The position numbers and the translations under genes were made by a program. A DNA stretch of 64,000 bases from Escherichia coli (GTDB lineage Bacteria; Pseudomonadota; Gammaproteobacteria; Enterobacterales; Enterobacteriaceae): assembly GCF_009931435.1 (NCBI RefSeq), contig NZ_CP043414.1. One strand, 5' to 3'. Under the pieces are notes generated by a model. That model saw only the letters and a list, made by a program, of their open reading frames with translations, did no database searches and was not told the DNA's origin. Of this stretch, positions 21,706 to 28,086 are shown one piece after another. The first letter of the stretch is position 1. Every line of letters begins with the position of its first letter.

Positions 21706-24240
21706 TTAATTACTACCAAACATATCCTTGATCCAACCTGCTACGCCGTCACTGTCTTTCTGCTCTTGCTGAGCAGGTTGCTGTTGCGGCTGTTGCTGCG
21801 GCTGAGAAGACTGATCAAACGGATTGCCTGACGGTTGCTGCTGAATCTCACTCTGCTGGCACAGCGATTGCGGATCGCTGGTCCAGACCGGCAAGACACG
21901 CATGCCACCGCTGCAAACAAAGTTGCCGTCGTAGTCCACGCCCATATCTGCAATATCTTCTGGTGGAACAAGATTCAGCGGTGTTGGCGTCTGGTTAGCC
22001 AGATAACGCTGATAAATCGACATTGCCCCGCTGGCTCCATACAGTTTGGTCGGCTGGTTGTTATCACGGCCTACCCAGGTGATGGTCACCGTGCTGCCGT
22101 CAATGCCCGCAAACCAGGTATCTACGTTGTTGTTGGTAGTACCCGTTTTCCCTGCCAGATGCAGATTTGGATATTTCGCCCCAAGCTGACGTCCCGTACC
22201 GCGTTGTACTACCTGCTGCATGGTCCATAGTGTCAGATACGCCGCCTGAGCCGGAACAGCGCGTTCCGCCTGCGGGAAGCTCTGATACAGTACCTTGCCA
22301 TCTTCCGCGATTACCGAACGCAGCGCAGAAAGCGGTGCTCGGTTACCACCACTAGCGATGGTCTGGAACGCCTGCGCCACTTCAATTGGCGTTAAGTTCA
22401 ACGCCCCCAGCAGCATTGCCGGAACCGGATGCAGCTGATCTTTCGGTACGCCCAGTTTAATCCAGGTATCCGTAACCGCAGGCAGACCCAGCGCCATCCC
22501 CAGATTCACCGTCGGCACGTTCATCGAACGTGTCAACGCATCCACCAGCATCACTCTGCCACTTTCGCTATAACGACGGTCATCGTTCTGCGGTGACCAG
22601 ACCTGGCCATTCGGCTGACGCAGCGCGATTGGCGCATCGGCAATCCACGTGTTCAGGCGATAGATTTTCGGCTGGCTTAAGGCCGTCAGATAAGTCGCTG
22701 GTTTTGCAAGAGAACCAATCGAACGACGCGCCTGCATCGCACGGTTGTAACCCGCAAACTGCGGCTCAGAACCACCGACCATCGCACGAACTTCACCACT
22801 AAAGCGGTCGACGACCACAATCGCGGTTTCAAGATCGCTCAACTTACGCTGTTTCTTCAGTGCCGGAATGCCTTCCACGGCGGCTTTTTCTGCCGCGTCC
22901 TGGGCCACCGAGTCAAAGGTTGTGAAGATCTTCACGCCGGAGAGATCTTTTACCTTATCGCCCAGTTTTGCCTGCAACTCCTGACGCACCAGCTGCATAA
23001 AGGCTGGCTGTGGAGAGATTACCCCACCGCGCGGCTGAACGCCCAGCGGACGTGCACTCAACATGTCATAGAGCTCTTGATCAATAATCTGCTGTTGTTG
23101 CAGCAGACGCAGTACCAGATTACGTCGCTCCAGCGCCAGTTTCGGGTTACGCCACGGGTTATAGATCGACGCCCCTTTCACCATACCAACCAACAGCGCC
23201 TGCTGGTCGAGACTCAGCTCTTCTACCGGGCGACCAAAGTAGTACAGGCTCGCCAGCGGGAAACCGCGGATTTCGTTGTCGCCGCTCTGACCGAGATACA
23301 CCTCGTTCATATACAGCTCAAGAATGCGGTCTTTGCTGTAACGCGCATCCATAATCAGCGCCATGTAGGCTTCGTTAGCTTTACGCCAGTAAGAACGTTC
23401 GCTGGAGAGGAACAGGTTTTTCACCAACTGTTGCGTCAGCGTACTCGCTCCCTGCACCGTGCGTCCGGCGGTCAGGTTTGCCAGCACCGCTCGTCCGATG
23501 GAGTAGAGACTGATCCCATCATGCTCGTAGAAATGACGGTCTTCAGTCGCCAACAACGTATCCACCAGCAAATCCGGGAACCCACTGCGCGGCACAAACA
23601 GACGCTGCTCGCCGTTTGGTGAGGAGATCATGGTGATCAGGCGCGGATCAAGACGGAAGAAACCGAACTGACGGTTGTTCTCCATATTGACGATGGTCGC
23701 CAGATGATCGCCATCAAAGGTCAGACGTGCACGCACCTGCCCTTCTTTACTGTCCGGGAAATCAAACGGACGGCGGATCATTTCAATGCTGTTGGCCTGC
23801 ACGGTAAATTCGCCAGGACGGGTCATTTTCGACACCTGACGATACTGGGTCGCCTCCAGCAGTTTCACCATCTCGTTTTTGCTGATGGTCATGTCTGGCT
23901 CAAGGTTGACCATTCGGCCATAAACAGCCGCAGGCAATTGCCAGACTTTGCCATCAATACGGCTACGAATTTTTTGATCGAGATAAACGCCGTAAATGGC
24001 GATCAGCACGGCAAAAACGATAGCAAGTTTTAGCAGTAGCCATAGCCAGCCGCGTTTGCCACGAGGCTTACGCCCTTTGCCTTTGCCCTTACCTTTGCGC
24101 GGCATCGGTTCTTCATCCTCATAGTCATCATAATCGTCGTAATCATCGTCATCTTCATAACGACGACGGCTTACCTTTTGTTTGACCGGACGCGTCGGTT
24201 TCCCTTTGCGTCCAATTGGCTCGCGGTCATTCCCGGCCAT
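21706..24240 (-). CDS. mrcB: penicillin-binding protein 1B (glycosyltransferase/transpeptidase)
   Basis: ORF 21706..24255; start placed at MAGNDREP (844 aa); acidic then Lys/Gly-rich N-terminus, TM helix, TG and TP domains. Confidence 0.95.
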
Positions 24241-24333
24241 GCTTTTTCTCCGCAATATTCAGGCGCAAAAGCCCGATTTTCTGTTCTTCTGTAACAAGAC
24301 AGAAGAAGATATCTCTCAAATTTACTTTGGTCT

Positions 24334-26763
24334 TCATGAATACTTTTTCGTCCGTCGCGTCGGTGCGGTATTTGCCGGATCATCCGGCCAGACGTGTTTG
24401 GGATAACGCCCTTTCATCTCTTTTTGCACCTCGCGATACGCACCTTTCCAGAAGGCGCTCAAATCTCGTGTGATTTGCAGCGGCCTTTGGGCAGGAGAAA
24501 GCAACTCCAGCACCAGCGGCACACGCCCCTGGGCGATCGTCGGATTGGTGGCCTCGCCAAACATCTCCTGCATTCTCACCGCCAGCGCGGGCGGGTTATC
24601 TTCATGGTAACGAATGGCGATCCGGCTCCCCGTCGGCACAGTGTAATGCGCAGGCAATTCACTATCCAGACGTTGCTGCATCCCCCAATCAAGTAATCCG
24701 CGTAGCGCCTGATAAATATCGAGTGATTTCAGGCCGCGTAGCGAATGTACGCCTGCCATATGCGGCAGTAGCCACGTTTCCAGCGTCGCCAACAAACTTG
24801 CATCATCAACCGCTGGCCAGTCATATTCCGGCAACCACTTTGCGGCGCATAACAAACGCAAGCGTAGCTGTTCCGCTTCCGCCGTCCAGTTGAGCACGCT
24901 TAAACCTTTATCACGAATGCCGTTAAGCATTGCCTGATGCAACTCGTCTTCCGAGGGTTTCGCCAGCGGCTGCACTTTCACCGTCAACTGACCGATTTGC
25001 AGCCGACGCCACGCTTTCAGCGTACCTTGCGCATCATCCCACTCCACAGTGTCAGACTGCTGTACCAACTGCGGACAGCGTTGTACTAATTCATCGATAT
25101 CGACCGGTAGCGCCAGTAAAATCCGCGCATCCGGCGAGGCGCTGCCCTGCAATAATAACGGTGCGATCAACCATTCGTGGCGGCTTAGCGCATCGTCGGC
25201 ATCGAGCATTGCCCCCATGCCGTTTGCCAGTTGATAGCGTCCATCTTGCCCACGGCGACGAGCAATGCGATCGGCATACGCCCCGGCAAGTAGCGGCGCG
25301 ATAAGAGAACTGTCTGCCTCACCGCCGCGTACGTTTAAACGTTTTAACAGTTGCTGGCTACGTTGCTGCCAGGCAGGTTGATTGCGCGAAAACGCCACAT
25401 CCAGATCGATATTGCCCATCCGTGGTGGCTCTTCGAGAATAGCGGCAATTTTTGCAGCGGTAGCAGCTTCGTCGTCGCTCCTTGCGCTCACCAGCATTGC
25501 CGCTAAACGCGGATCGTTACCCAGCGTCGCCATTTTCTGCCCTTTCGTGCTTAGCCGTTCACCGTCCATCGCCCCCAGCATCCGTAACAGGCGTTTCGCG
25601 GCCTGTAAATTCACGGCTGGCGGTTGATCCAGCCAGCTCATCTGCGTCGGATCGCTGCATCCCCATTGCAGTAATTCCATCAGCAAACCGGAGAGATCGC
25701 TTTGTAAGATTTCCGGTTCACTTTGCGCGGAGGCGCGTTCTGCTTGTTCTTTGGCGATTAAATGTAAACAGATCCCCGGCTCCAGACGTCCGGCACGCCC
25801 GGCGCGTTGCGTCATTGATGCCTGGCTAATGCGTTGGGTAATCAGCCGCGTTAGCCCCGTGCGCGGATCAAAGCGCGCCACACGTTCCTGAGCACAATCC
25901 ACCACCAGACGAATACCTTCGATGGTTAAACTGGTTTCAGCAATATTGGTTGCCAGCACCACTTTGCGCATCCCTTCTGGTGCCGGAAGGATCGCTTTTC
26001 GCTGATCGTTCAGCGACAACGCGCCATACAGCGGGCAGAGCAACACATCACTACCGATGCGCGAAGCTAGTTGTTCCTGAACGCGCTGAATTTCTCCGAC
26101 ACCAGGTAAAAATAACAGTAATGAGCCGCTTTCCTGATGCAGCAATTCGGCGGTGGCAACCGCCACGGCTTCATCAAAACGCTGATGAGCGAGCAGCGGT
26201 AAATATCGGCGTTCAACCGGAAATGAGCGCCCTTCTGAGATGACGACGGGCGCTTCTGGCAGCATCTGCTGCAAGCGGTCATTGTCCAGCGTAGCCGACA
26301 TAATCAGTAGTTTAAGGTCATCACGCAGACCTTGTTGCACATCGAGTAACAGCGCCAACGCCAGATCCGCCTGCAAGCTGCGCTCATGAAACTCATCGAG
26401 GATCACCAATCCAACGCCGCTCAGTTCAGGGTCACGCTGGATCATGCGCGTCAACACGCCTTCGGTAACTACTTCCAGGCGAGTATTTGGCCCGACACAG
26501 TTTTGCGCGCGCATCCGGTAGCCTACCGTATCACCTGTTTTTTCGTTAAGCAGTTCCGCCAGTCGTTGCGCAACGTTACGCGCCGCCAGGCGACGCGGCT
26601 CCAGCAGGATAATTTTTCCGTTAATGCCGGGATGCGCCAGCAGTTGCAGCGGCAGCCAGGTTGATTTCCCGGCCCCGGTCGGCGCACTTAATAACACCTG
26701 CGGTGCACCATCGAGGGCAGCAAGTAACTCAGGTAAGACGGCGGCAACGGGCAACGACGACAC
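24334..26763 (-). CDS. hrpB: ATP-dependent RNA helicase HrpB (DEAH-box)
   Basis: ORF 24334..26808; start placed at the GTG at 26763 (VSSLPVAAV, 809 aa); motifs GAGKST and DEFH. Confidence 0.9.
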   Translation of the reverse strand: MSSLPVAAVLPELLAALDGAPQVLLSAPTGAGKSTWLPLQLLAHPGINGKIILLEPRRLAARNVAQRLAELLNEKTGDTVGYRMRAQNCVGPNTRLEVVTEGVLTRMIQRDPELSGVGLVILDEFHERSLQADLALALLLDVQQGLRDDLKLLIMSATLDNDRLQQMLPEAPVVISEGRSFPVERRYLPLLAHQRFDEAVAVATAELLHQESGSLLLFLPGVGEIQRVQEQLASRIGSDVLLCPLYGALSLNDQRKAILPAPEGMRKVVLATNIAETSLTIEGIRLVVDCAQERVARFDPRTGLTRLITQRISQASMTQRAGRAGRLEPGICLHLIAKEQAERASAQSEPEILQSDLSGLLMELLQWGCSDPTQMSWLDQPPAVNLQAAKRLLRMLGAMDGERLSTKGQKMATLGNDPRLAAMLVSARSDDEAATAAKIAAILEEPPRMGNIDLDVAFSRNQPAWQQRSQQLLKRLNVRGGEADSSLIAPLLAGAYADRIARRRGQDGRYQLANGMGAMLDADDALSRHEWLIAPLLLQGSASPDARILLALPVDIDELVQRCPQLVQQSDTVEWDDAQGTLKAWRRLQIGQLTVKVQPLAKPSEDELHQAMLNGIRDKGLSVLNWTAEAEQLRLRLLCAAKWLPEYDWPAVDDASLLATLETWLLPHMAGVHSLRGLKSLDIYQALRGLLDWGMQQRLDSELPAHYTVPTGSRIAIRYHEDNPPALAVRMQEMFGEATNPTIAQGRVPLVLELLSPAQRPLQITRDLSAFWKGAYREVQKEMKGRYPKHVWPDDPANTAPTRRTKKYS

Positions 26764-26836
26764 AAAACGCTCCAGAGGGTTAACATTCTTCGCGCCACAT
26801 TGTAGCATCGCGGTAATGCATAACCGAGTACCTCAC

Positions 26837-28086
<1,250 letters not shown>

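Follow-up and report, generated by a model that had tools for sequence, protein, structure and literature searches.

Probable GTG initiation of Escherichia coli hrpB downstream of an in-frame ATG that lies in putative overlapping promoters

Translation of hrpB very probably starts at the GTG codon at 26763..26761 on the minus strand of the window (the whole stretch of E. coli DNA that was analysed, 64,000 nucleotides), giving an 809-residue protein that begins (M)SSLPVAAVLPELL..., and not at the ATG that opens the longest open reading frame (ORF) 15 codons further upstream. The GTG had been proposed by a sequence-only reading as the likely start, in frame and exactly 45 nt (15 codons) within the longest ORF; both the coordinates and the sequence proved exact, and the assignment is backed by annotation, mapped transcription start sites (TSSs), a Shine-Dalgarno (SD) sequence, a comparison of 80 species and a boundary in codon periodicity. 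The GTG start is already known, being that of the standard reference annotation and also that of the form used structurally. The coding features of the locus, in window coordinates, are the following.

24334..26808 (-): longest hrpB ORF, 824 aa with an ATG start (ORF listing)
24334..26763 (-): hrpB coding sequence (CDS) from the GTG, 809 aa plus stop, 2430 nt (ORF end and RefSeq annotation of relatives)
26761..26763 (-): hrpB GTG start codon (sequence, cross-species conservation and onset of periodicity)
26806..26808 (-): in-frame upstream ATG, part of both putative -10 elements and very probably not a start codon
26764..26808 (-): apparent extension of 15 codons, read as non-coding promoter and leader DNA (codon-position entropy)
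26770..26773 (-): SD core GGAG, within the 28-nt leader at 6 nt from the GTG

Reading frame, annotation and leader of hrpB

Read on the minus strand from 26808, the apparent extension is ATG CTA CAA TGT GGC GCG AAG AAT GTT AAC CCT CTG GAG CGT TTT, and the sequence from the GTG at 26763 continues GTG TCG TCG TTG CCC GTT GCC GCC GTC TTA CCT GAG TTA CTT. The long form is thus translated as MLQCGAKNVNPLERF, then V/M-SSLPVAAVLPELL, with 14 codons (LQCGAKNVNPLERF) between the ATG (26808..26806) and the GTG (26763..26761). The chance that 14 random codons contain no stop is about (61/64)^14, roughly 0.5, and the long ORF is itself weightless as evidence because an open stretch of this length is expected by chance about half of the time.

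RefSeq annotates hrpB as a gene of 2430 nt from the GTG in strains 2013C-4282, DH1, H22 and MG1655, the MG1655 gene being b0148 (NP_414690.4, 162105..164534; RNA-dependent NTPase HrpB). Both crystal structures of E. coli HrpB open with MSSLPV, PDB 6HEG comprising 809 aa and 6EUD the same 809 aa with 3 tag residues added. Over its residues 16-200, the long form matches both structures (E about 1e-110), and this close match to the solved E. coli protein identifies the product as HrpB, a bacterial DExH-box (DEAH/RHA) NTPase. The Walker A motif of the RecA1 domain (GAGKS/T) is found in the window HrpB as APTGAGKST, preceded by 26 residues in the GTG form and 41 in the ATG form. Walker A is likewise preceded by 26 residues in the HrpB homologues of Vibrionaceae and Aeromonas, as well as in HrpB of Pseudomonas aeruginosa, where Walker A occupies residues 27-34 and for which RNA-stimulated NTPase activity has been reported (PMC7237152). 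The GTG form therefore has the N-terminus typical of HrpB, with about 26 residues ahead of Walker A and an opening of the type x-x-LP(V/I).

The gene, its divergent neighbour thpR, the 73-bp spacer between them and the GTG start are all as in K-12; the DNA from ATG to GTG is identical, the first 185 residues differ at few positions only, and the two substitutions in the spacer both lie on the thpR side of the ATG. Over a 501-bp stretch (window 26500..27000), identity reaches 99.8% with strain 2013C-4282 (the best match) and about 93.6% with K-12 strains; among 5424 complete E. coli genomes, only 18 match this stretch at 99% identity or more, and most fall between 90 and 95%. The window hence belongs to a divergent Escherichia lineage, yet the part of the spacer between ATG and GTG is the same as in K-12.

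The transcription starts mapped in K-12, together with the neighbouring promoter features, are placed on the window as follows; the function of the promoter hexamers is predicted.

26791 (-): hrpB TSS, transferred from K-12 162077; the putative -10 hexamer ends 8 nt before it
26764..26791 (-): hrpB 5' untranslated region (UTR), 28 nt, transferred from K-12
26799..26807 (-): putative hrpB extended -10, TGcTACAAT (TG 26807-26806, TACAAT 26804-26799)
26780..26808 (+): predicted thpR promoter, -35 TTAACA (26780-26785), 17-bp spacer and -10 TAGCAT (26803-26808), from a promoter scan
26815 (+): thpR TSS, by homology to K-12 162053
26837..27367 (+): CDS of thpR (RNA 2',3'-cyclic phosphodiesterase), the divergent neighbour (transferred RefSeq annotation and ORF end)

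In K-12, the hrpB TSS was mapped to 162077(+) with 92 reads and a 28-nt UTR (Kim et al. 2012, PMC3415461, supplementary file 2), and Cappable-seq independently places it at the same nucleotide (Ettwiller et al. 2016, PMC4782308, supplementary file 1). With the upstream ATG at K-12 162060 and the GTG at 162105, the TSS (window 26791) lies 17 nt downstream of the former and 28 nt upstream of the latter. TSS coordinates were carried from K-12 to the window by an ungapped alignment, identical from ATG to GTG, and given this identity the K-12 start sites are expected to hold for the window's strain. The mRNA would start at 26791, downstream of the ATG, so that the main hrpB transcript would not contain it. 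RNA polymerase would thus start the hrpB mRNA about 8 nt downstream of TACAAT, and the main message would carry a 28-nt leader with GGAG placed 6 nt ahead of the GTG, its first in-frame start codon. A TSS was also mapped in Klebsiella pneumoniae, at 171989, 29 nt before the hrpB start codon at 172018 (Kim et al. 2012, PMC3415461); counted from the printed promoter sequence, the ATG of the upstream motif is there 44 nt from the start codon, and so out of frame.

The GTG shows the arrangement of a canonical SD-led start (an ATG, GTG or TTG on the transcript, with a purine-rich SD at a distance of 5-9 nt before it). The calculated energy of pairing to the 3' end of the 16S rRNA is -6.7 kcal/mol upstream of the GTG versus -2.9 upstream of the ATG, against a background mean of -4.1 kcal/mol for random 20-mers drawn from the window. 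The SD of the GTG is only moderate, about 22% of random window 20-mers pairing as well as -6 kcal/mol; by the same 16S rRNA pairing, no SD precedes the ATG.

The leader also contains a conserved block, ATGTTAACCC, at 26777..26786 (-). Only 5 nt separate its ATG (26786) from the 5' end of the mRNA, and an out-of-frame ORF of 32 codons runs from this ATG across the hrpB start. The block was considered as a small leader ORF and rejected, since some Citrobacter and Enterobacter species have AAG in place of the ATG and the block is the reverse complement of the thpR -35 TTAACA; it is probably not a gene. An Rfam scan of 26650..26950 gave no match, and no known RNA element accounts for the block.

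Conservation of the upstream region across Enterobacterales

The DNA from ATG to GTG is invariant and ungapped across four aligned Escherichia sequences, K-12 included. With a spacer that hardly varies, an alignment within Escherichia says nothing on coding, and hrpB 5' regions were therefore gathered from 80 Enterobacterales species of other genera. At the aligned position, the start codon is GTG in 77 of the 80 species, TTG in two and ATG in one (a Yersinia), and GGAG stands 5-7 nt upstream of it in 79. An upstream ATG that is in frame and open is present in 35 species, in 34 of them at the same 45-nt spacing as in the window, Salmonella and Citrobacter included. In the remaining species, the frame between ATG and start codon is interrupted by an in-frame stop (9/80), the motif's ATG is out of frame (26/80, at spacings of 40-50 nt, mostly 44), the motif is present without an ATG (6/80), or no motif is recognisable (4/80). 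An extension from the ATG is hence impossible in 45 of the 80 species, the frame being stopped or shifted or the ATG or motif absent. These interruptions also occur between close relatives: a TAA stands directly before the GTG in Enterobacter cloacae and E. quasihormaechei, whereas many other Enterobacter have an open frame, and the frame that is open in Kluyvera ascorbata is shifted by 1 nt in Kluyvera genomosp. 1. The comparison indicates that selection acts on the GTG and its ribosome-binding site and not on the upstream reading frame.

Codon periodicity was assessed in a gapless alignment of 44 sequences (43 loci plus the window) that share a 35-nt spacing. Mean column entropies at codon positions 1/2/3 were 0.52/0.19/1.37 over codons 2-16 and 0.57/0.24/1.39 over codons 2-30, as against 0.65/0.54/0.75 over the 45 nt upstream of the GTG. 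Third-position variability therefore sets in exactly at the GTG, from the first codon after it, and the 45 nt before it display no codon periodicity in this alignment. Conservation upstream is block-like, with one block from -46 to -36 (the two -10 hexamers), one from -23 to -13 (ATGTTAACCC, the thpR -35) and one from -10 to -7 (GGAG), and with variable stretches around the TSS and in the spacer between SD and start codon. The pattern of substitutions argues that these 45 nt are conserved as overlapping divergent promoters and as a ribosome-binding site, with a spacing that is a multiple of three by chance, and are not protein coding. The earlier description of the extension as 15 non-conserved codons thus stands only in part: there is indeed no codon pattern, but the DNA itself is strongly conserved in Escherichia, Salmonella and Citrobacter.

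Alternative starts and over-extended predictions

The reading in which the ATG at 26808 is the sole real start, producing an HrpB of 824 residues whose N-terminus is extended by 15, draws on the longest ORF with the preferred start codon, on the open frame with its ATG at the 45-nt spacing in 34 species, and on gene callers, some of which predict such an N-terminus in Escherichia, Shigella, Salmonella and Citrobacter-like sequences. However, this ATG lies 17 nt upstream of a TSS mapped twice in K-12 and has no SD, 45 of the 80 species cannot encode the extension while the GTG and GGAG persist, the 45 nt carry no codon periodicity, HrpB homologues of other families do without the extension, and both crystal structures were obtained from the 809-aa form. 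Exclusive use of the ATG is on these grounds exceedingly improbable, and this reading is already largely refuted.

Use of both codons is most unlikely as well; in this case the main promoter would supply the GTG form, and a longer transcript starting upstream would supply a minor isoform of 824 residues. Cappable-seq reports a further plus-strand TSS at K-12 161665, antisense within thpR and with a score similar to that of 162077 (PMC4782308); a transcript from this site that reached hrpB would carry the ATG, and the window and its closest genera keep the ATG frame open. Yet 161665 is absent from the list of Kim et al. 2012 (PMC3415461), the ATG is without an SD, and nothing selects for the extension, as its frame is repeatedly broken between close relatives. 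That a longer transcript, for example from 161665, could give a rare 824-residue isoform with a 15-residue tail under some conditions in Escherichia, Salmonella and Citrobacter has an even slighter chance of being true. A start further downstream, such as the TTG of codon 4 (26754), is almost inconceivable. TTG is a possible initiation codon and could be served by the same GGAG, but the latter would stand 15 nt upstream, farther than an SD is usually spaced; many species have TTA, CTG or CTT for this leucine, which is thus not kept as a start codon; and coding-type periodicity is already present in codons 2-4.

Initiation by the ribosome at the GTG itself is what these lines of evidence jointly suggest. 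In published N-terminomics supplements and INRI-seq, neither codon gained support from peptides or initiation profiling: the TRAINSPOTTER N-terminomics supplements do not contain hrpB, and INRI-seq has no initiation peak at hrpB 162105, on a template that runs from -30 onward and thus leaves the ATG outside.

Both N-terminal forms occur among predicted proteins in public sets, the longer one as MLQCGAKNVNPLERFV (Escherichia, Shigella), MLQCGAKKVNPVEPFV (Salmonella) and also MLQCSAKNVNPLELFV; these are the output of gene callers and were not counted as independent evidence on the start. An N-terminus in the style of the 824-aa form (MLQCGAKNVNPLERFV... and its Salmonella/Citrobacter variants) is carried by an NCBI Shigella sonnei entry and by a Salmonella cluster of 132 members (P0001, P0060, P0072, P0090, P0108). 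The 824-residue form in public sets is a recurring mis-annotation. As in other longest-ORF artefacts, an in-frame ATG upstream of a true non-ATG start lengthens the predicted protein; unlike the usual case, the spurious ATG of hrpB is itself conserved, so that the extension looks conserved among close genera.

An over-long ORF also occurs next to hrpB. The longest thpR ORF (26624..27367 (+), 247 aa, from an ATG at 26624) overshoots the annotated start at 26837 (176 aa); taken as the gene, it would share more than 130 nt with hrpB. On the other side, the mrcB ORF (21706..24255, 849 aa, TTG start) may overshoot likewise. Both K-12 TSS maps assign to mrcB, the downstream gene that encodes PBP1b, a start at 164235 with a 495-nt leader, which corresponds to about window 24633 (-) if no indels relative to K-12 are assumed; this TSS falls in the 3' part of hrpB, and an mrcB promoter would therefore lie within the hrpB coding sequence.

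A putative bidirectional promoter between thpR and hrpB

The spacer between thpR and the hrpB GTG measures 73 bp and would shrink to 28 bp if the ATG were the hrpB start. This ATG is embedded in the sequence gATGCTACAAT, in which the last T of the -10 lies 8 nt before the mapped hrpB TSS: its TG is the TG of the putative extended -10 of hrpB, and its reverse complement, CAT, closes the thpR -10 TAGCAT, which ends 7 nt ahead of the mapped thpR TSS (K-12 162053(-), 19 reads, 22-nt UTR for thpR/ligT; Kim et al. 2012, PMC3415461). Its place in two overlapping promoter elements would thus account for the conservation of the spurious ATG. The motif gATGCTACAAT is kept in most of the 80 Enterobacterales species, and 76 of them have a TGnTAnnnT motif at a distance of 25-80 nt before the start codon.

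The promoter scan reported a single promoter-like site, the TTAACA/TAGCAT of thpR. The hrpB promoter, with its poor -35, was missed, and its extended -10 was picked by eye and checked against the mapped TSSs; it has the TGn and TATAAT-like hexamer of an extended -10, within the 6-9 nt upstream of a mapped TSS that define this element. From their sequence and the TSS positions, the named hexamers are presumed to be working promoter elements.

TACAAT (hrpB) and TAGCAT (thpR), read from opposite strands, have an overlap of TA, and a distance of 24 bp separates the K-12 TSSs, which places the pair within the definition of bidirectional promoters given by Warman et al. (divergent TSSs 7-25 bp apart, with overlapping -10 elements on opposite strands). 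The bidirectional sigma-70 promoters described by these authors (bioRxiv 10.1101/2020.01.31.928960; PMC12825309) likewise have overlapping -10 elements, with a spacing that is commonly 23 bp; the 24 bp seen here arise because the hrpB TSS lies 8, not 7, nt from its -10. Neither the text nor the supplements of the Warman et al. bidirectional-promoter papers name the hrpB/thpR promoter, the only hrpB entry in a sigma-70 SELEX paper is the hrpB-mrcB spacer, and a literature search on the hrpB start codon, its promoter or thpR returned nothing specific.

Beyond annotation hygiene, the significance of the start codon itself is small, the GTG being already the reference; callers that prefer the longest ORF or an ATG nonetheless still output an 824-residue HrpB, and the locus offers a clean example of a conserved N-terminal extension that calls for a test of codon periodicity and for comparison with mapped TSSs. 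Worth recording is the compact putative thpR-hrpB bidirectional promoter, with its overlapping -10 elements conserved across Enterobacterales, through which the genes of an RNA phosphodiesterase and an RNA helicase may compete for, or share, the binding of RNA polymerase.
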